Positions 1-8,724 of a stretch of DNA of 64,000 nucleotides are shown piece by piece. Position 1 is the stretch's first letter. Each line of letters begins with the position of its first letter. Source of the stretch: Escherichia phage P1. The stretch is from the sequence record AF234173.1; one strand, written 5' to 3'. The notes below the pieces were generated by a model, which saw nothing but the letters and a program-made list of their open reading frames with translations, searched no databases and was not told the origin of the DNA. The translations under genes were made by a program, and so were the position numbers.

Positions 1-376
1 CAGGGAAAATCCGATACAACGGGTTAATGAACGAGTCGCCATGCGTAACCATGACGTTGAAATGCCACAGTCGCTCTCCTTTACCCATATATTCAGTGGG
101 TATGTACAACCATTCACTGTTTTCGCCCTGTTCAGCCGACGCCAGACAACGTTGTTCGCCTTCAATCACTGTCGTCGGCTTCTGAACATCGCGGATCCAA
201 TATCTGACCGTTGCGCCGCGCAAAAACGGGAATTTAGACCGGTACTTGAACGGCACCCGGATGAAACCCGGTTTAATTTCCACATCACCAAGTTCTAAAT
301 GCGTGATGTCCTTGCGTTTTAGCAAATAGCGATCGGCTAAGGCTAACGCAAGAACGCATACACCCCAGCCAATCAT
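1..376 (-). CDS. hypothetical protein with N-terminal signal/anchor, partial (3' end lies beyond window start)
   Basis: Minus-strand frame reads MIGWGVCVLALALADRYLLKRKD... with no stop down to position 1; its ATG overlaps the stop of the upstream ORF (ATGA). Not in the ORF track because it is open at the window edge. Confidence 0.4.
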   Translation of the reverse strand, partial: MIGWGVCVLALALADRYLLKRKDITHLELGDVEIKPGFIRVPFKYRSKFPFLRGATVRYWIRDVQKPTTVIEGEQRCLASAEQGENSEWLYIPTEYMGKGERLWHFNVMVTHGDSFINPLYRIFP

Positions 377-702
377 TTCCCGCCTCCCTTTTTCACCAAA
401 CTTGTAAGAACATTCAGAATGCTATCGATATTCACTCGTTTCATCCCTGAAATCACCTCATGACCGTTATTGCTGGCTATCGTTACCATTAAGTACGTAA
501 TTGATAACTCCCAGCCCTCGTGTTGCCCCAATAGGTACGCCACCGCGCCAGCTGTCACTGCAACAAAGATCTCCGTAACCAATCCCAACAAATTGCCAGA
601 CTGGCGACCGTCTCGGACATCCATCAGGAACGTGCCTATCCCACCAATTACTGAAAGCAGGAGCGCAATAGCAACTGGAGCTAATTCCTGTGTGTCAAGC
701 AC
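373..702 (-). CDS. small membrane protein, holin-like (109 aa)
   Basis: ORF track; hydrophobic segments separated by charged loops and a charged C-terminus, resembling lambda-S-type holins. Confidence 0.35.
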   Translation of the reverse strand: MLDTQELAPVAIALLLSVIGGIGTFLMDVRDGRQSGNLLGLVTEIFVAVTAGAVAYLLGQHEGWELSITYLMVTIASNNGHEVISGMKRVNIDSILNVLTSLVKKGGGK

Positions 703-769
703 AAGTTCCCTCCTACGTTGTCAGGAGGTAATGGTATGCAAAGTAACTTCTCAACCGGTCATTTGTTGC

Positions 770-1051
770 TTAAGAGGCATTTCTATTGAGGTACGAATCA
801 ATAATCCTTTGTAACTTTTCAAGAATGAGCCTGTTATTGATGCTGCAAATAATAGTCACGCAATTCTGAAGACTTTCATCCATACCCTTATATTCCGCGA
901 AATACATGCCTATAAAGCCTGCAAGTACGGCAGCAATACACTCGGCCATCAATTGCCTGCATGACGCTTCGTAACGTTTTTCACAAACCCCATTCAGAAA
1001 CGAATGCACCCCGCCAAGGATGGAGAGGAGCATTATTGTGAAATCACACAT
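770..1051 (-). CDS. small membrane protein (93 aa), possible holin/antiholin-like
   Basis: ORF track; two hydrophobic segments; AT-rich gene. Confidence 0.3.
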   Translation of the reverse strand: MCDFTIMLLSILGGVHSFLNGVCEKRYEASCRQLMAECIAAVLAGFIGMYFAEYKGMDESLQNCVTIICSINNRLILEKLQRIIDSYLNRNAS

Positions 1052-1178
1052 AACTATTTCCTTAATAGTGAATTAAATATCATTGGGAAACGGTATGTAC
1101 TTTGTGATTTCCACACATACTGGTTTTTGTTAATTAAAATCCGCAGCTTGCTATAAATAACGATAGTGAGCAGAAAAT

Positions 1179-1739
1179 ATGCTAATAGGCTATGTACGCG
1201 TATCAACAAATGAACAAAACACTGCTTTACAACGAAACGCTCTTGAAAGCGCAGGATGTGAGCTAATTTTTGAGGACAAGGCGAGCGGCAAAAAGGCTGA
1301 GCGCCCTGGGTTAAAAAAGGTACTCCGTATGCTTTCCAGAGGTGATACCCTGGTCGTATGGAAGTTAGACCGTCTTGGGCGCAGCATGCGTCACTTAGTT
1401 GTGCTGGTGGAAGAGCTGCGTGACAGAGGCATTAACTTCCGGAGTCTCACTGACTCCATCGACACCAGTACACCAATGGGGCGCTTTTTCTTTCACGTAA
1501 TGGGGGCGCTGGCAGAAATGGAACGTGAGCTTATCGTTGAACGTACACGCGCTGGACTTGATGCAGCTCGCGCAGAAGGTCGTATAGGTGGGCGTCGGCC
1601 TAAATACCAAGAAGAAACATGGCAGCAAATGCGGCGATTGCTGGAGAAGGGCATCCCCCGTAAGCAGGTTGCAATCATCTATGATGTGGCTGTTTCCACG
1701 CTTTATAAGAAGTTTCCGGCGTCATCATTTCAATCCTAA
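1179..1739 (+). CDS. cin: serine-recombinase DNA invertase (Cin/Pin/Gin/Hin family)
   Basis: N-terminal GYVRVSTNEQ catalytic-serine motif, resolvase fold, C-terminal HTH; lies directly beside an invertible segment. Confidence 0.93.
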   Translation: MLIGYVRVSTNEQNTALQRNALESAGCELIFEDKASGKKAERPGLKKVLRMLSRGDTLVVWKLDRLGRSMRHLVVLVEELRDRGINFRSLTDSIDTSTPMGRFFFHVMGALAEMERELIVERTRAGLDAARAEGRIGGRRPKYQEETWQQMRRLLEKGIPRKQVAIIYDVAVSTLYKKFPASSFQS

Positions 1740-1753
1740 ACCTTGGTTTAAGA
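1728..1753. promoter_or_regulatory. cix-like crossover site, left (TTCAATCCTAAACCTTGGTTTAAGAG)
   Basis: Imperfect palindrome with AAACC-TT-GGTTT core matching gix/hix/cix sites; spans the cin stop codon; sequence identity with the right repeat starts at its centre. Confidence 0.6.
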
Positions 1754-2340
1754 GAACTCGGTACCAGCGGTGAAAAGATCCCCCTGTTGAGCACGGCTAA
1801 CACATGGAGTGCACGCCAGACTTTCAACGGCGGGATCACCGGGGCGCTGACAGGGAACGCCGATACCGCAACGAAATTGAAAACAGCCAGAAACATTAAT
1901 GGCGTCAGGTTCGATGGTTCTGGTGACATTAATATCAATACTCTGGTATCGCGCGGTCGCGTAACGGCCCTGGAGGCGAATGCACAGGGAACATCCGGGA
2001 TTCAGCTGTATGAGGCATACAACAATGGCTACCCTTCCCCCTATGGCAATGTGCTTCACCTTAAAGGTGCCACCGCTGCTGGCGAAGGTGAGTTATTCAT
2101 TGGCTGGAGTGGCACGAGCGGTGCCCATGCGCCCGTACATATCCGTTCGCGGCGGGATACTGATTCTGCCAACTGGTCTGAATGGGCGCAGGTCTATACG
2201 TCAAAAGATTCAATTCCCGGCGTCAATGCCAAAGGGGATCAGGATACCTCTGGTAATGCGGCTACAGCGACCAAGTTGCAGACAGCATGTACTATCAACG
2301 GTGTCTCGTTTGATGGTTCTAAAAATATTGAGCTAACGGC
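1741..2340. repeat. left arm of ~0.6 kb inverted repeat flanking the invertible C-segment
   Basis: About 190 aa of ORF 1787..3301 are identical to residues of the 1016-aa minus-strand tail fibre; nucleotide identity runs from ~1741 to ~2340 and diverges after GAGCTAACGGC. Confidence 0.85.
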
Positions 2341-3301
2341 TGAAAATTTAAATCTTGAGCGAACAGTAGAATTAGCCGCTGGGTCATTGCAGAAAAATCA
2401 GAACGGCGCGGATATTCCTGGAAAAGATACCTTCACAAAAAATATTGGTGCATGTCGCGCTTTTCACAGTTCTATTAGTACAGGTGCAGGGAACTGGACA
2501 ACGGCACAATTGATTGAATGGCTGGATTCTCAAGGGGCATTCAATCACCCATACTGGATGTGCAAATGTTCATGGTCGTACGGCAATAATAAAATTATAA
2601 CCGATACTGGCTGTGGAACTATTCATCTTGCAGGTTGCGTTATTGAGGTTATGGGTAATAAAGGTGCCATGACCATCCGTGTAACAACACCAAGCACTTC
2701 CAGCGGTGGCGGAATCACTAACGCTCAATTCACTTATATTAATCATGGTGATGCTTACGCTCCTGGCTGGCGACGAGACTACAACACGAAAAACCTGCAA
2801 CCTGCATTTGCTTTAGGGCAGACAGGAAACAGGGTTGCAAATGATAAAGCTGTTGGCTGGAACTGGAATAGCGGTGTTTATGATGCAGACCTAAAAGGCG
2901 CATCAACATTAATTCTTCATTTCAATATGAACGCGGGTAGCTGCCCGGCTGTACAATTACGCGTGAATTATAAGAACGGCGGTATTTATTATCGTTCAGC
3001 GCGTGATGGTTATGGATTTGAGGCTGACTGGTCAGAGTTTTACACCACAACCCGCAAACCCTCTGCGGGGGATGTTGGTGCATATACGCAGGCAGAATGT
3101 AACTCAAGGTTTATTACAGGTATTCGCCTGGGCGGTCTGTCATCTGTCCAGACATGGAATGGCCCCGGCTGGTCTGACAGGTCAGGTTATGTCGTTACGG
3201 GTTCAGTTAACGGGAACCGTGATGAATTAATTGATACAACACAGGCAAGGCCAATTCAGTATTGCATTAATGGGACGTGGTATAACGCGGGGAGTATTTA
3301 A
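1787..3301 (+). CDS. alternative tail-fibre C-terminal cassette (Sv'-like), silent in this orientation
   Basis: Shares the repeat-encoded segment with the expressed fibre, then diverges into a different C-terminus; no ATG of its own (track start is TTG inside the repeat). Confidence 0.75.
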   Translation: MSTANTWSARQTFNGGITGALTGNADTATKLKTARNINGVRFDGSGDININTLVSRGRVTALEANAQGTSGIQLYEAYNNGYPSPYGNVLHLKGATAAGEGELFIGWSGTSGAHAPVHIRSRRDTDSANWSEWAQVYTSKDSIPGVNAKGDQDTSGNAATATKLQTACTINGVSFDGSKNIELTAENLNLERTVELAAGSLQKNQNGADIPGKDTFTKNIGACRAFHSSISTGAGNWTTAQLIEWLDSQGAFNHPYWMCKCSWSYGNNKIITDTGCGTIHLAGCVIEVMGNKGAMTIRVTTPSTSSGGGITNAQFTYINHGDAYAPGWRRDYNTKNLQPAFALGQTGNRVANDKAVGWNWNSGVYDADLKGASTLILHFNMNAGSCPAVQLRVNYKNGGIYYRSARDGYGFEADWSEFYTTTRKPSAGDVGAYTQAECNSRFITGIRLGGLSSVQTWNGPGWSDRSGYVVTGSVNGNRDELIDTTQARPIQYCINGTWYNAGSI

Positions 3302-3303
3302 TT

Positions 3304-3837
3304 ATGATGCACTTAAGAAATATTACAGCTGGCAACCCTAAAACAAAAGAGCAATACCAGCTAACGAAACAATTTAACATCAAATGGCTTTATACAGAGG
3401 ATGGAAAAAACTGGTATGAGGAACAAAAGAATTTCCAGTATGATACGTTGAAAATGGCCTATGACCACAACGGCGTTATTATTTGTATTGAAAAGGATGT
3501 TTCAGCAATTAATCCAGAAGGCGCAAGCGTCGTTGAATTACCTGATATTACAGCAAATCGCCGGGCTGATATTTCTGGTAAATGGATGTTCAAAGATGGC
3601 GTAGTGGTAAAGCGAACTTATACCGAGGAAGAGCAGAGGCAACAAGCGGAAAATGAAAAGCAAAGTCTGCTACAGCTCGTCAGGGATAAAACCCAGCTAT
3701 GGGACTCACAGCTACGGCTGGGTATCATTTCCGCCGAGAATAAGCAGAAATTAACCGAGTGGATGCTCTTTGCGCAGAAAGTCGAATCCACAGACACCTC
3801 CAGCCTACCAGTAACATTTCCCGAACAACCTGAATGA
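3304..3837 (+). CDS. tail fibre assembly chaperone (Tfa/U'-like)
   Basis: 177 aa; paralogous to ORF 3866..4393 (shared ...[12 protein letters not shown]...GKWMFKDG...); follows the fibre cassette. Confidence 0.8.
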   Translation: MMHLRNITAGNPKTKEQYQLTKQFNIKWLYTEDGKNWYEEQKNFQYDTLKMAYDHNGVIICIEKDVSAINPEGASVVELPDITANRRADISGKWMFKDGVVVKRTYTEEEQRQQAENEKQSLLQLVRDKTQLWDSQLRLGIISAENKQKLTEWMLFAQKVESTDTSSLPVTFPEQPE

Positions 3838-3840
3838 GAC

Positions 3841-3860
3841 AAGGCCCGATAGCGGGCCTT
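3841..3860. terminator. hairpin between the convergent chaperone genes
   Basis: AAGGCCCGATAGCGGGCCTT stem-loop followed by a T-run on the + strand. Confidence 0.5.
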
Positions 3861-3865
3861 AATTT

Positions 3866-4393
3866 TTATTCAGGCTTTTGTGGCCATTCAGGATTTGCCG
3901 TATCCACACGGCTGACCAGAACACTGTAGCGTTCCCATGCTTCCAGTCGTGTGCGTTCCTCGTCTGTTGCCATATTCAGCCTGACAGCGCGTTCCAGCGG
4001 CTGGATGACTGATTCAGCTTCGGAAAGCAATGCGGCCTTTTGTGATTCGGCTTGTTGTTGCTGTTCGTCTGCCGTATAAATCCGTTTAACTACAGCTCCA
4101 TCCTTAAACATCCACTTTCCTGAATCATCAGCGCGGCGGTTGGCTGTTATGTCGGGAACCTCAACGACGCTAAAACCTTCAGGGTTAAGCGTGGAGGCAT
4201 CTTTGGTGATGGCGACAATAATATTATTTTCATCGTAAACAATCTTTATGGTGTCTGGTTGAAAGTTTTTCACTTCCTCATACCAGTTTTTTCCGTCTTC
4301 AGACCACAACCAGATTACGTCAAAATTCTTTGTTAATTGGTATTGCTCTTTTGTCTTTGGGTTTCCTGACCTGATATTTTTTAAGTGCTGCAT
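3866..4393 (-). CDS. tail fibre assembly chaperone (Tfa/U-like)
   Basis: 175 aa paralogue of 3304..3837; immediately downstream of the expressed fibre gene. Confidence 0.8.
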
Positions 4394-4396
4394 AAT

Positions 4397-7360
4397 TTAC
4401 ACCTGTGCGACGTTATACCATATGCCATTGATGTATTTTTGTATCGGCCTGAAGCTAGCTTCATCATCGCCATCAACTTTACCAATAATCCTTAATCCGG
4501 TAAGTGCGTGTCCGGCTATTTCATAACGCCCTCCACGCGCCATCAATTGAACAACACGTGTGCCAAGTCGGACATCTCTCACATAGCGTGAGTCAAAATT
4601 GCCATAATTTCCGGGAATAATTTGCGCACCGCAAAGCCAGTTACCGTTATTGTCCATGTACGCCTGACCATCGGTGCCATTGGCTGTCCTTGAGTTATTA
4701 ATCATGTAGATGCCAAATTGCTTGTTCCCCAGTCCACCTATCATGAACTTTCGGTCGGCGTGATTCTGGCGAAGTAACGCCTGAGCGCTATCAGTGTTAA
4801 CTATATTTTTCCCAAAGATAGCGTTGTTATCGCGCATCTGAATCCACATACCATTACTGCTGTTAATAGCAAAACGGTCTGAAAGTGTCTCCCCTGAAAC
4901 ATTAAGGCCACGCCCCATCGAAACAGCGCCAGTAGCGTTATTAATCCATAATGGCCTTAATCCGTTATAAGTCCCCATGTTGTCACCGGAGTTTGTCAAC
5001 ATGAAGTATGTATTTGAACCATCATTACGAATAAAGAATCCGTAATTACCATAAGCAATACGTAGGCCGTTTGCTGATTTTGATATGACTTCGCCATTTA
5101 CAATGGCATTGACAAGAACATACAAAGCATCCCATTTAAGATTCATCAGGTCTTTTGTTGTGGTACTTTGTTTGCTTCTCCATTTGAAATATTCATTGCC
5201 GTTGTCGCCTGTTTCAAACCACATGTATGAATCAGTATCGCTGTCGGCATCATTTTTAAAACCAATCTTCGCCCAGTCAGTATTCCGAATCCAGGCAAGG
5301 ATTGAGTCGTTTTCAAAAGTAAGTCCACCGGACAAGGTATCGCCTGTCTTTTGAACCGCGTTATCAGCCTTGTTTACCGTTTCCTGTAGATTTAAATCTT
5401 CCGCCGTTAGCTCAATATTTTTAGAACCGTCAAACGAGACGCCGTTGATAGTACATGCTGTCTGCAACTTGGTCGCTGTAGCCGCATTACCAGAGGTATC
5501 CTGATCCCCTTTGGCATTGACGCCGGGAATTGAATCTTTTGACGTATAGACCTGCGCCCATTCAGACCAGTTGGCAGAATCAGTATCCCGCCGCGAACGG
5601 ATATGTACGGGCGCATGGGCACCGCTCGTGCCACTCCAGCCAATGAATAACTCACCTTCGCCAGCAGCGGTGGCACCTTTAAGGTGAAGCACATTGCCAT
5701 AGGGGGAAGGGTAGCCATTGTTGTATGCCTCATACAGCTGAATCCCGGATGTTCCCTGTGCATTCGCCTCCAGGGCCGTTACGCGACCGCGCGATACCAG
5801 AGTATTGATATTAATGTCACCAGAACCATCGAACCTGACGCCATTAATGTTTCTGGCTGTTTTCAATTTCGTTGCGGTATCGGCGTTCCCTGTCAGCGCC
5901 CCGGTGATCCCGCCGTTGAAAGTCTGGCGTGCACTCCATGTGTTAGCCGTGCTCAACAGGGGGATCTTTTCACCGCTGGTACCGAGTTCTCTTAAACCAA
6001 GGTATTGGATAACAGCAAGAATGCTTGTTTTGGCCAGAATATCGCGACCAACTGACGTTAAGTCAGTCTGAGAAACAGTGTCTGTACCGGTAAAGTACGG
6101 CAATTTATTTGCGCCTGTCGCAAGACCAGCAAGCGCGGTTAAAGTTGCATCAAGTGGCTGTTTCCCTGCCAGCGCATTTGTCATTGTTGTCGCAAAGTTC
6201 GGGTCATTGCCCAGTGCTGCTGCAAGCTCATACAGGGTATCAAGAGCTTCAGGTGATGAGCCGACCAATGCAGAGATAGCAGCCCGTACGTAAGCAGTCG
6301 TAGCGATCTGCGTATTGTTTGTGCCCTGTGCAGCCGTAGGCGCAGTAGGGACACCCGTTAATGCAGGGCTTGCCAAAGGCGCTTTGAGAGCCAAGGCATT
6401 GTTGATAGTTGTGCTGTAATTCGGGTCGTTATTGATCGCAGCCGCTATTTCTTTCAGCGTATCCAGTGTGCCAGGCGCACCGTTGATAAGTGCAGTTATA
6501 GCTGCCTTAACAAAGGCTGTATTTGCGATCTGCGTGCTGTTTGTACCTTGCGCTGCCGTCGGCGCGGTTGGCGTTCCTGTCAGACTCGGGCTTTCTATTG
6601 GCGCTTTGGTATCAGCCAGATCTTTTATAGACTTAACAGCTTTAGGGGTAGCCGCCATTGTTTCGCTGTCGCTGTTAGTTGCGCTACTGAGCTGAACTAA
6701 TCCCTTTTGCGTTGTGCTTGCATCCTGTGCCGTATACTTGCTTTTCGCCAGATCGTAGGCTTTTTTAACTGCCAGCGAACTTGCAGCAACATCACTTCTG
6801 GTACTGGTTACAGAGTCTGAAATATCAATGCCGATCGAGCGGTTGATACGCTCGGATGTATCAATCATCTCCTGGGTAATGGCAGATACACTAGCAGGGA
6901 TATTCACCGTACAAACAAGCAGCTCCCCATCTCCTAACTGATATGAATCGGTATAGGTTCTGGCAACAAATTCAGCCGCATGAATATGTGACGCGGTATT
7001 CACCTGGTAGGTATCTTCTCCAAGGAGGTATCTTCCCTTCAGCACAATTGCATATTTCTTGCCTGCACTAAGTGCAAGAGAAATATCCTTACGTTGCTGA
7101 ATAGTTACCTGGTAAAATTCACCAATATCCACCGACGCCGCGCCTGCGGTTTTATCACCATCCACTGAGGTAATTAACAGGTTCATCCCACCGCCAGGCT
7201 TAGGTAAGAAACCGGCATAAAATCCCGGGTCAACAATCCCCCTGAATTTTCGGTTTAGCGCGGCTGACAGATATGGTTCGTGGTATTGCACATCGGCCAC
7301 CAGAGCCAACGACTCGGATGATGGGTAAGTAACCGATGTAACAACTGTAACGTCATTCAT
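4397..7360 (-). CDS. tail fibre protein (constant N-terminal part plus currently joined variable C-terminus)
   Basis: Long ORF (track 4397..7447); likely true start is the ATG at 7360 preceded by AAGGAT; contains the right inverted repeat and internal tandem repeats. Confidence 0.85.
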   Translation of the reverse strand: MNDVTVVTSVTYPSSESLALVADVQYHEPYLSAALNRKFRGIVDPGFYAGFLPKPGGGMNLLITSVDGDKTAGAASVDIGEFYQVTIQQRKDISLALSAGKKYAIVLKGRYLLGEDTYQVNTASHIHAAEFVARTYTDSYQLGDGELLVCTVNIPASVSAITQEMIDTSERINRSIGIDISDSVTSTRSDVAASSLAVKKAYDLAKSKYTAQDASTTQKGLVQLSSATNSDSETMAATPKAVKSIKDLADTKAPIESPSLTGTPTAPTAAQGTNSTQIANTAFVKAAITALINGAPGTLDTLKEIAAAINNDPNYSTTINNALALKAPLASPALTGVPTAPTAAQGTNNTQIATTAYVRAAISALVGSSPEALDTLYELAAALGNDPNFATTMTNALAGKQPLDATLTALAGLATGANKLPYFTGTDTVSQTDLTSVGRDILAKTSILAVIQYLGLRELGTSGEKIPLLSTANTWSARQTFNGGITGALTGNADTATKLKTARNINGVRFDGSGDININTLVSRGRVTALEANAQGTSGIQLYEAYNNGYPSPYGNVLHLKGATAAGEGELFIGWSGTSGAHAPVHIRSRRDTDSANWSEWAQVYTSKDSIPGVNAKGDQDTSGNAATATKLQTACTINGVSFDGSKNIELTAEDLNLQETVNKADNAVQKTGDTLSGGLTFENDSILAWIRNTDWAKIGFKNDADSDTDSYMWFETGDNGNEYFKWRSKQSTTTKDLMNLKWDALYVLVNAIVNGEVISKSANGLRIAYGNYGFFIRNDGSNTYFMLTNSGDNMGTYNGLRPLWINNATGAVSMGRGLNVSGETLSDRFAINSSNGMWIQMRDNNAIFGKNIVNTDSAQALLRQNHADRKFMIGGLGNKQFGIYMINNSRTANGTDGQAYMDNNGNWLCGAQIIPGNYGNFDSRYVRDVRLGTRVVQLMARGGRYEIAGHALTGLRIIGKVDGDDEASFRPIQKYINGIWYNVAQV
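5406..6005. repeat. right arm of ~0.6 kb inverted repeat of the C-segment
   Basis: Reverse complement of 1741..2340; mirror ORFs 5684..5995 (+) and 1748..2059 (-) are identical. Confidence 0.85.
5988..6013. promoter_or_regulatory. cix-like crossover site, right
   Basis: Reverse complement reads TTATCCAATACCTTGGTTTAAGAGAA, a close match to gix/cix sites, at the outer edge of the repeat. Confidence 0.6.
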
Positions 7361-7371
7361 CAAGCATATCC

Positions 7372-7806
7372 TTATGCTGTAGTCGTGTTTATGGCCATAA
7401 CTGCGGTATATGTTTTGCCCACATACAGCGAGTCTTCCTGGACACAAATAATGGCGATTGGCTTGTTCTCGTTATCCAGAACAACCAGAGTGTTGAATGG
7501 GTAGTTTTTCCCTTCCTGCAACTGGCTTTGATCAAGGTCCATTCGGACAGTAATTATCCCGCCTGAGTAGGTTGGGACGAGGTTGATGGTGCAAAATTGA
7601 CTGGTCAGTTCTGCCAGTTCGAAAGCCTTTGGCAGTTCTCCAATCTCATAAGTGCCATCTCCTTTCTTAGTAACCAGCGAACTGGTACCGAAAACGGCCT
7701 TGCTGATTAAAAATCGAGAGCCTTTGTTAATGGACGATTCAGCGCGCCGCTGATAGTAATAGTCCAACAACTGACTCTTATAGAGGTTTGTTGAGACGTC
7801 AGACAT
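7372..7806 (-). CDS. tail/baseplate protein
   Basis: 144-aa ORF directly upstream of the fibre gene in the same operon. Confidence 0.5.
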   Translation of the reverse strand: MSDVSTNLYKSQLLDYYYQRRAESSINKGSRFLISKAVFGTSSLVTKKGDGTYEIGELPKAFELAELTSQFCTINLVPTYSGGIITVRMDLDQSQLQEGKNYPFNTLVVLDNENKPIAIICVQEDSLYVGKTYTAVMAINTTTA

Positions 7807-7884
7807 GATTTTCCCTAATCAATGTTGTGAAGCCTCATTGTAAGATAAGTAACTTGTCACCCCGCCCTGCGGACGGGGTGATTA

Positions 7885-8724
7885 TCAGGCATCACTATCC
7901 AGCAGCAAATCATCTGCGCGGGTGCGATCAAACGTAGGCGTTGCTTTCACAATAGTGCCGCCCGGCGTTGCAGTGATCGGAGCGCTAATCGACGTAACTC
8001 CAGTAAGCGAAGTTGTATCCGAAGTTTCAAACCAGCAGTACGCTTTTTCGGTATCAGAAATCTCGTTCAAAGTGATCATGTCGGCGTGTTCATTTACAAC
8101 AACCGACAAATAGAGCGTAAGCCCATCAAACACTATATGCAGTGGCAGTAGAGGCTTTACGAACTGATTAAACTTTCTGAGAATTTCTTCTGTAATTGCG
8201 GACTGATCTATCGTGCCAGTAATACCCATTGTCCTGGCCAGGTCGTTTATGGGAATACTGATCATCCCTCTGGAAGTCAGAAACATCTCGCCGAATGTGC
8301 CGCCGGTAGTCTCCAGTGTGCTTTCTGGTATTAGAACCGTGCCATAGGGATGACGCTCAAGGTCCACCGGTGCATATATCGGATCCCATAAAACAGAAAT
8401 ACCGTTAAATTCGCGGTAAATTGTCTGGTTTATAGGGCGTTCAGTCCCCTTAAAGTGAATCTCATCAAGACGCTGTTGTAACAACATCGGAACGGAAGAT
8501 GAGTTCGACGTTCTGATAGTAAAGAACTGGCCAAGTTCATTTGTCCTGGTCTCCAGATCCTCCTTGCTCATGGAAAAAATAGACTTCCGGTTGGTAATTC
8601 GCTCCAACCATGGGTCAACAAAGGTATCCATCATTGACTGAACCAAATCAGCCAATGATTTATAGAGCAATGACTTTTGCTTAGCTGATGTAAGCCGGTG
8701 ATTAAACCAGGAACGCTGCATCAC
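7885..8724 (-). CDS. baseplate protein
   Basis: 279-aa ORF, 4-bp overlap with the upstream gene. Confidence 0.45.
   Translation of the reverse strand: MMQRSWFNHRLTSAKQKSLLYKSLADLVQSMMDTFVDPWLERITNRKSIFSMSKEDLETRTNELGQFFTIRTSNSSSVPMLLQQRLDEIHFKGTERPINQTIYREFNGISVLWDPIYAPVDLERHPYGTVLIPESTLETTGGTFGEMFLTSRGMISIPINDLARTMGITGTIDQSAITEEILRKFNQFVKPLLPLHIVFDGLTLYLSVVVNEHADMITLNEISDTEKAYCWFETSDTTSLTGVTSISAPITATPGGTIVKATPTFDRTRADDLLLDSDA

Follow-up and report, generated by a model that had tools for sequence, protein, structure and literature searches.

The tail-fibre switch of bacteriophage P1, based on its invertible C segment, is a long-known system whose characterisation dates from the early 1980s. 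In the reference annotation of P1 (NC_005856), this region is a segment that is inverted by Cin at the sites cixL and cixR; in the C(+) orientation the variable fibre part Sv is expressed, paired with the assembly protein U, and in C(-) it is Sv', paired with U'. Phages Mu and D108 share this logic in their G segment (Gin-gix), in which the constant fibre part Sc lies outside and two convergent Sv-U cassettes lie inside. The P segment of e14, with its invertase Pin, and the Hin-hix system of Salmonella belong to the same subfamily of Fis- and enhancer-dependent serine DNA invertases as Cin. Hin is the mechanistic model for the subfamily (PMC3798978) and, unlike the P1 system, flips a promoter rather than a coding C-terminus. 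Closer to P1, the phages and plasmids P7, D6, RCS47, JL22 and the IncY plasmids in PLSDB have the cin-C-segment architecture in common with it, and many share one or both cassettes. Cassette content nevertheless varies among P1-like phage-plasmids: P7 and RCS47 match best over 54% of the query, at 89% identity, and in some elements cin is truncated or the C segment has been deleted (PMC6906374).

We analysed a window of 64,000 nucleotides (AF234173.1), in which an initial annotation had placed an invertible tail-fibre switch at 1728-6013. Positions 1000-7600 aligned with Escherichia phage P1 (NC_005856/AF234172) as one collinear piece of 6.6 kb at 99.9% identity, with 5 mismatches to the reference in the 8.6 kb compared; a window position equals the NC_005856 position minus 30481. 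The reference record lists cin, the enhancer, cixL, cixR, the crossover points, Sv', U', U, S, R and LPs, and the gene order in the window is that of the P1 C segment: cin, cixL, Sv', U', terminator, U, Sv, cixR, Sc and R. The interval proposed initially encloses both 26-bp cix sites (1731-1756 and 5987-6012). We conclude that this region is almost certainly the C-segment/Cin host-range switch of P1, here in the C(+) orientation; there is nothing new in the switch itself. The reference is like the window in genes, sites and C(+) orientation, and differs from it by five non-synonymous substitutions in the last 130 codons of S. We found no differences between the two in cin, the cix sites, the repeats, Sv', U' or U.

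Table 1. Features of the C-segment region, in window coordinates.
Feature	Position	Strand	Description
P2cin and P1cin	1057-1140	+	predicted sigma-70 promoters upstream of cin; annotated at 31538-31621 in NC_005856
cin	1179-1739	+	serine DNA invertase, 186 aa; annotated; Pfam Resolvase and HTH_7
Recombinational enhancer	1197-1268	none	in the 5' part of cin; annotated as "enhancer of Cin-mediated C-segment inversion", 31678-31749
cixL	1731-1756		26-bp crossover site, core TT at 1743-1744; overlaps the cin stop codon
IR-L	1733-2368	none	left 0.6-kb inverted repeat, 636 nt, 98% complementary to 5375-6010
Invertible C segment	1744-5999		4256 bp; annotated at 32225-36480 in NC_005856; NZ_CP122833.1 equals the window with this interval reverse-complemented
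Sv'	1744-3301	+	silent alternative fibre C-terminal part; frame from 1745, unique part about 2341-3301; annotated Sv prime
U'	3304-3837	+	tail-fibre assembly protein paired with Sv', 177 aa; annotated; Pfam Caudo_TAP, E = 1.3e-35
GC-rich hairpin	3841-3860		8-bp stem, between the convergent U' and U stop codons
U	3866-4393	-	tail-fibre assembly protein paired with Sv, 175 aa; annotated; Pfam Caudo_TAP, E = 1.1e-37
S	4397-7360	-	tail-fibre gene expressed in C(+), 987 aa; intact ORF; annotated
IR-R	5375-6010	none	right 0.6-kb inverted repeat, partner of 1733-2368
cixR	5987-6012		26-bp crossover site, core AA at 5999-6000; within the S coding sequence
R	7372-7806	-	tail-fibre gene upstream of S, same late operon; annotated; ORF present
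LPs	7837-7855	-	late promoter outside the invertible segment; annotated at 38318-38336 in NC_005856; window identical

The invertible segment is bounded by two large inverted repeats separated by 3006 nt. Their extent and complementarity (Table 1) agree with the initial description of two repeats of about 600 bp that encode a common fibre segment: each cassette starts with the same repeat of about 0.6 kb, which codes for about 200 shared fibre residues. The two arms differ by 11 mismatches, of which 2 fall in the outer cix half-sites (1737 and 1739) and the other 9 lie within the inner 67 nt (2302-2365), a zone of decaying identity. Palindromic, crossover-like sites had been noted at the outer edges of the repeats, and these coincide with the annotated sites and crossover points: cixL (CAATCCTAAACC TT GGTTTAAGAGAA) is annotated at 1734-1753, within a Cin-binding region at 1730-1760 and with its crossover at 1743/1744, and cixR (TTCTCTTAAACC AA GGTATTGGATAA) at 5990-6009, with its crossover at 5999/6000. 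Each site consists of 12+2+12 bp, and the two are in inverted orientation. Their central dinucleotides, TT and AA, are reverse complements; because the cores match, religation is possible.

The recombinase gene directly adjoins cixL. In Pfam searches, Cin matched Resolvase over residues 3-135 (E = 4.6e-51) and HTH_7 over residues 138-181 (E = 1.9e-18), and its N-terminus, MLIGYVRVST, contains the conserved Ser9 in the motif YVRVS(9)T. Cin thus combines the N-terminal resolvase domain with serine and the C-terminal helix-turn-helix of the Hin/Gin/Cin/Pin invertases. Mu Gin is its nearest relative of solved structure (3UJ3 and 4M6F, E ~1e-88). The DNA of cin shows zero differences from the characterised reference gene, and, as judged from its sequence, Cin is an intact serine invertase. 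The enhancer interval is likewise identical to the annotated P1 enhancer. Enhancers of this subfamily have two Fis sites in the 5' part of the invertase gene; scanning the interval with a degenerate Fis motif gave one strict Fis-like 15-mer (1249-1263). A consensus promoter scan did not pick up P2cin or P1cin. Two other types of variation system were considered and rejected. A shufflon, with its Rci tyrosine recombinase and multiple sfx sites, is ruled out by a recombinase of the serine resolvase family and by the presence of one site pair and one large inverted repeat in window positions 1-10000. A diversity-generating retroelement was rejected as well, as no reverse transcriptase is annotated among the features listed around the segment.

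Within the segment, two alternative C-termini, each with its own chaperone, converge as had been proposed, with Sv'-U' on the + strand facing U-Sv on the - strand. The assignment of the cassette at 4397-5405 as the one expressed in the present orientation was borne out, since the reading frame of S is uninterrupted from 7360 to 4397. This gene comprises Sc (6000-7360) and Sv (4397-5999), with the unique tip at about 4397-5398, and its product matches Phage_fiber_2 repeats and, at residues 696-806, Gp34_trimer; R gave no Pfam match. We likewise agree that the cassette at 2341-3301 is silent and without a start codon of its own: Sv' stays open for 518 aa, matches gp37_C in Pfam and contains no in-frame ATG before 2558. 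When we inverted positions 1744-5999 in silico, Sc became fused in frame to Sv', giving an intact S' of 972 aa whose first 654 residues are the same as those of S. According to the annotation, LPs drives R-S-U, or R-S'-U' after inversion. The locus thus consists of a constant fibre N-terminus outside the segment and two convergent pairs of C-terminus and Caudo_TAP protein inside it, with in-frame fusion both ways, as in a switch of the Mu G type. The two variable domains had been described as unrelated in sequence. This is an overstatement, because the last ~65 residues of the S and S' tips are a conserved stretch and align with 33% identity (E = 1e-6). The two chaperones, U and U', share 56% identity.

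Window positions 2385-5388, which hold the unique parts of Sv' and Sv together with U' and U, are about 91% identical to the Mu/D108 G segment. Mu and P1 are unrelated in the constant N-terminal fibre part and in the remainder of the phage. P1 also differs from Mu in its 0.6-kb inverted repeats with their shared fibre residues; the repeats of the Mu G segment are only 34 bp. In e14, pinE is 74% identical to cin in DNA, but the tail-fibre cassettes have no detectable DNA similarity to those of P1.

A terminator hairpin had also been proposed between the cassettes. The sequence there is AAGGCCCG-ATAG-CGGGCCTT, followed by AATTTTTATT, and a 46-nt fold has -24.8 kcal/mol (z = -7.4) on the + strand, against -19.0 kcal/mol (z = -4.8) on the - strand. 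The hairpin is present, but a T-run lies 3' of it on the + strand only, which makes it asymmetric as an intrinsic terminator.

If the segment is a working switch, both orientations should be found in nature. We found that NZ_CP122909.1, a pig-derived P1 plasmid, corresponds to the window as it stands, in C(+), with 6 mismatches in 8800 nt. In contrast, another such P1 plasmid, NZ_CP122833.1, corresponds to the window with 1744-5999 inverted, in C(-). Over 8800 nt it has 36 mismatches to this simulated inversion, of which only 3 lie inside the segment, and no indels. Both plasmids carry the same Cin protein accession. A census of PLSDB gave 68 plasmids that cover at least 80% of a lydC-cin-IR-Sv' query, the arrangement of C(+), and 21 that cover at least 80% of a lydC-cin-IR-Sv query, the arrangement of C(-). 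These queries were 2.6 kb long and took 1044 nt from outside the segment, so that the wrong orientation covers only about 60%; shorter junction queries (1.9 kb) did not discriminate, because the repeat and the unique cassette are contiguous in either orientation and alone make up 82% of the query. A single orientation together with an inactive invertase, which the initial annotation had named as evidence against a switch, is thus not what we found: Cin is intact, and both orientations occur among near-identical plasmids.

These data also bear on the idea that the switch is frozen, with this copy locked in C(+) and the Sv'-U' cassette a decaying relic. A single assembled sequence does show one orientation only, and among public plasmids C(+) outnumbers C(-) by about three to one (68 vs 21). 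However, the Sv' and U' frames are uninterrupted and the simulated inversion yields a full-length S', cin, the enhancer and both cix sites match the functional reference P1 in every base, and the natural C(-) copies carry the same Cin protein. Particles with S' are, moreover, functional (PMC13172314, PMC10028697). We therefore consider a locked switch extremely improbable.

The plasmid orientations do not by themselves prove catalysis by Cin, because a crossover at cix looks the same as one anywhere in 1740-2301, where the two repeats are identical. The inverted product in NZ_CP122833.1 would accordingly fit a second explanation, in which flipping occurs mainly by RecA-dependent homologous recombination between the 0.6-kb repeats, with Cin and cix dispensable or vestigial; a 636-nt repeat at 98% identity is an ample substrate for such recombination. 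Early work on P1 described rec-dependent inversion in cin mutants, at a lower frequency. The classical result, an inversion rate much lower in cin- recA+ than in cin+ recA- hosts, speaks against this as the main route. Furthermore, Cin is intact and lies directly beside cixL, the repeats stop exactly at 26-bp sites resembling those of serine invertases, with matching 2-bp cores, and the Mu G segment, a homologue with about 91% identity across the central 3 kb, inverts too. Inversion is also credited to Cin in the literature (PMC6906374, PMC13172314). Homologous recombination as the main route is thus very unlikely, and we favour site-specific inversion by Cin.

LPs and Sc are fixed outside the 4.26-kb segment, which carries the convergent Sv-U and Sv'-U' cassettes with the hairpin between them. 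By analogy with the DNA-invertase family, inversion by Cin would proceed as follows. Cin, encoded just outside cixL, would bind as dimers to both inverted 26-bp cix sites, and host Fis at the enhancer inside cin would assemble with the Cin-bound sites into a synaptic complex. Cin would then cut the central dinucleotides with a 2-bp stagger via its active-site serine, and strand exchange by subunit rotation would be followed by religation. The inversion joins Sc in frame to the other cassette, and the fibre of the progeny is then S of 987 aa, paired with chaperone U, or S' of 972 aa, paired with chaperone U'. This invertasome mechanism is established for the related Hin and Gin (PMC3798978); Cin catalysis at cix and its dependence on Fis and the enhancer are taken here from the literature and from knowledge of the family.

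The suggestion that the two variable domains confer two receptor specificities finds support in published work, on which the assignment of receptors to S and S' likewise draws. Inversion of the C segment by Cin alters host range (PMC6906374). S is reported to bind the LPS outer core and S' the O-antigen (PMC13172314), and phage in the C(-) state adsorb to E. coli O3 as well as to Shigella flexneri 2a and 5a (PMC10999674); adsorption of C(-) phage to Shigella flexneri and E. coli O3 is also supported by a further study (PMC10028697).

The differences between the window and the reference are concentrated at the tip of S. Over the 64 kb, the window and the P1 reference differ at 12 bases. Five of these differences lie in a 332-bp stretch of the S tip, and each of the five is non-synonymous (reference to window: T859A, R948I, E961K, D967E and I969S). 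Relative to two natural P1 plasmids, two of these changes are private to the window lineage and three to the reference lineage. The cryptic prophage e14 of E. coli K-12, which has Pin and invertible fibre cassettes of its own, was rejected as a gene-conversion donor of these substitutions, since its cassettes are without similarity and only cin and pinE match. It is conceivable, though we consider it unlikely, that propagation of P1 in the laboratory has repeatedly exerted selection on the S tip; stocks called "P1" in different laboratories would then differ in adsorption properties. As a separate observation, the window is a laboratory P1 genome and has an engineered MluI/BssHII deletion in dmt.

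The P1 C-segment switch now serves as a tool in host-range engineering of P1-based delivery particles. In the biology of the phage, it is a textbook case of programmed DNA inversion, by which the virus hedges its bets between hosts.

We found that window 1000-7600 matches Escherichia phage P1 (NC_005856.1/AF234172.1, 31481-38081) at 99.9% identity in a single collinear piece, and that every element of the switch is named in the reference feature table (window coordinates equal reference coordinates minus 30481). The element is the already known P1 C segment, the type example of its kind. A repeat search of window 1-10000 returned a single outstanding inverted repeat, with 636-nt arms at 1733-2368 and 5375-6010 that are 98% complementary and lie 3006 nt apart; the runner-up spanned 40 nt at 75%. 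Base-by-base comparison of the arms revealed 11 mismatches: two close to the outer edges (1737/6006 and 1739/6004) and nine within the inner 67 nt (2302-2365), over which the repeat grades into unique sequence. Complementarity is lost sharply beyond 1733 and 6010. Each outer end carries a 26-bp site built as 12+2+12: CAATCCTAAACC-TT-GGTTTAAGAGAA at 1731-1756 and TTCTCTTAAACC-AA-GGTATTGGATAA at 5987-6012, the central dinucleotides being reverse complements of each other. Because the sites sit at these positions, the interval 1728-6013 that the initial annotation had assigned to an invertible tail-fibre switch is almost exactly right.

Features of the C segment and its surroundings, and single-base differences from reference P1 (substitutions read reference to window)
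Feature	Window position	Strand	Details	Source
cin	1179-1739	+	186-aa ORF	reference feature table
Enhancer of Cin-mediated inversion	1197-1268		annotated	reference feature table
Cin-binding region	1730-1760			reference feature table
cixL	1734-1753		crossover 1743/1744	reference feature table
Invertible C segment	1744-5999			reference feature table
Sv', silent cassette	1744-3301	+	begins in left repeat	reference feature table
U'	3304-3837	+	177-aa Caudo_TAP protein, downstream of Sv'	reference feature table
U	3866-4393	-	175-aa Caudo_TAP assembly protein, downstream of S	reference feature table
S, expressed fibre	4397-7360	-	987 aa	ORF and reference feature table
cixR	5990-6009		crossover 5999/6000	reference feature table
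R	7372-7806			reference feature table
Late promoter LPs	7837-7855			reference feature table
S-tip difference	4455		I969S
S-tip difference	4460		D967E
S-tip difference	4480		E961K
S-tip difference	4518		R948I
S-tip difference	4786		T859A
Other difference	11376		sit; NC_005856 41857	reference feature tables
Other differences (<200 bp)	23674, 23684, 23871		pmgG; NC_005856 54155, 54165, 54352	reference feature tables
Other difference	38532		just upstream of tRNA-Asn; NC_005856 69332	reference feature tables
Other difference	46993		gene 25; NC_005856 77793	reference feature tables
Other difference	53121		pap; NC_005856 83921	reference feature tables

The invertase gene is intact. The cin reading frame ends inside the left site, its stop codon (1737-1739) falling within cixL, and the protein combines a Resolvase catalytic domain (E = 4.6e-51) with an HTH_7 domain (E = 1.9e-18) and carries the active-site motif YVRVS(9)T. 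Among solved structures, its nearest relatives are 3UJ3 and 4M6F, both of Mu Gin invertase (E ~1e-88). Across cin, the enhancer, the cix sites and the repeats, the window shows no DNA difference from reference P1. We also observed that cin is transcribed towards the C segment (+ strand, 1179-3837), and found no terminator-like site between cin and Sv'-U'. Read-through from the cin promoters could transcribe the "silent" cassette, in either orientation, at a low level; U' starts at an ATG of its own.

The S gene spans the right site and right repeat and encodes Phage_fiber_2 repeats and a Gp34_trimer domain (residues 696-806). The Sv' frame is open for 518 codons (1745-3301, + strand) and matches gp37_C, with no in-frame ATG before 2558. 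The window is in the C(+) orientation, in which the variable part Sv is joined to the constant part Sc, as initially called. When 1744-5999 was reverse-complemented in silico, Sc fused in frame to the other cassette, yielding a 972-aa protein identical to the present 987-aa fibre over residues 1-654. Since Sc is 1361 nt long, the crossover falls within a codon; the frame is preserved on inversion because both sites share the same phase within the common repeat.

We next consider whether both orientations occur in nature. PLSDB was searched with 2.6-kb queries, each comprising 1044 nt outside the segment (lydC-cin), the repeat and ~930 nt of unique cassette, in the native C(+) and the simulated-inverted C(-) forms. 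At a threshold of at least 80% query coverage, 68 plasmids matched C(+) and 21 matched C(-). Two plasmids of Belgian pig-faeces E. coli isolates provide a direct pair that encodes the same Cin protein accession: NZ_CP122909.1 differs from the uninverted window by 6 mismatches in 8800 nt, and NZ_CP122833.1 differs from the window with 1744-5999 inverted by 36 mismatches in 8800 nt (3 inside the segment, no indels), versus 2214 against the native form. In NZ_CP122833.1 the annotated full-length fibre gene (2919 nt, matching the 972-aa S') adjoins U'. With cin DNA matching the reference and both orientations present among plasmids, the picture is not that of a single orientation with an inactive invertase, against which the initial annotation had set its reading. 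A frozen switch is likewise contradicted: the silent cassette is intact, and C(-) relatives exist.

Other plasmids in the census pointed to further arrangements. Two from Escherichia albertii, NZ_CP099904.1 (132.6 kb) and NZ_CP099870.1 (122.7 kb), appeared in both the C(+) and C(-) lists with four matching places each, which suggests that each replicon carries two P1-like cin/C-segment loci, differing either in orientation or in cassette content. In NZ_CP099881.1 and NZ_CP099909.1, also from E. albertii, window 700-3300 matched in two pieces over ~3.85 kb, and an IS3-like ISEc52 transposase is annotated within the matched region, which points to an IS insertion somewhere in the lydC-cin-Sv' stretch.

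Any crossover within 1740-2301 gives an identical product, and the plasmids therefore demonstrate inversion, not which enzyme made it. Recombination of the 0.6-kb repeats by RecA is a physically plausible route, probably with a low-level contribution, but it leaves unexplained both the intact invertase and the presence, at the repeat ends, of sites of exact serine-invertase build. Published work identifies the invertase as Cin, which alters host range (PMC6906374). For the relatives Hin and Gin, invertase dimers at both sites come together on an enhancer bound by Fis, at a branch in the supercoiled DNA, and cleavage through serine linkages is followed by one subunit rotation of 180 degrees and then religation (PMC3798978); by analogy with these close relatives, Cin would follow the same invertasome model. 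A serine recombinase with a single site pair fits neither a shufflon nor retroelement-type diversification. Over its central 3 kb (window 2385-5388), the C segment shares ~91% identity with the Mu and D108 G segment, which is the classical homology linking these switches.

The point of convergence of the two cassettes is marked by a GC-rich hairpin, AAGGCCCG-ATAG-CGGGCCTT (3841-3860), with a fold of -24.8 kcal/mol (z = -7.4). The proposed convergence around a hairpin terminator held, except that a T-run, AATTTTTATT, follows the stem on the + strand only; on this basis the U' transcript would end at what resembles a canonical intrinsic terminator, and the S-U transcript expressed at present would meet a weaker one. 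In C(+), the S-U transcript reaches the stem without a U-tract (3841-3870), and after inversion S'-U' would reach the canonical terminator; antisense read-through into the silent cassette may thus differ between states.

The two variable tips had been described as unrelated. This is correct for most of their length, as BLASTP found no other significant match between the unique tails, but not for the last ~65 residues, which share 33% identity (E = 1e-6) including the common end ...RPIQ..ING.WYN... At the DNA level this shared C-terminal end shows up as the 40-nt, 75% inverted repeat I2 (3248-3287/4411-4450). U and U' are 56% identical. With this minor correction, the initial observation is confirmed and its interpretation supported.

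Apart from a 319-bp deletion in dmt (junction at window 37744-37750; ~NC_005856 68232-68550), the window is collinear throughout with P1 record positions 30482-94800. The junction, ACGCGC, is a hybrid of the MluI (ACGCGT) left and BssHII (GCGCGC) right breakpoints of the reference, indicating that the deletion was engineered and that the window derives from a laboratory strain of P1; we take it to be that of the "dmt-delta-MB" strain (AF234173), whose sequence was submitted together with the reference genome. Among the 12 base differences in 64 kb, five, all non-synonymous, lie within 332 bp of the S receptor-binding tip (4455-4786), against a chance expectation of ~0.06 per 332 bp. Set against two natural P1 plasmids, the window alone departs at 4455 and 4480, and the reference alone at 4460, 4518 and 4786. 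This clustering suggests that the S tip came under selection during laboratory passage. Sequence comparison ruled out the K-12 e14 prophage as a gene-conversion donor of these substitutions.

Sc is common to S and S', which differ in Sv versus Sv'; U and U' aid the maturation of the fibre, and R serves to attach it (PMC13172314). S recognizes LPS outer core sugars and S' recognizes O-antigens (PMC13172314), supporting the two receptor specificities initially proposed. Adsorption of C(-) phage has been documented on Shigella flexneri 2a, on S. flexneri 5a and on E. coli O3 (PMC10999674; also PMC10028697).
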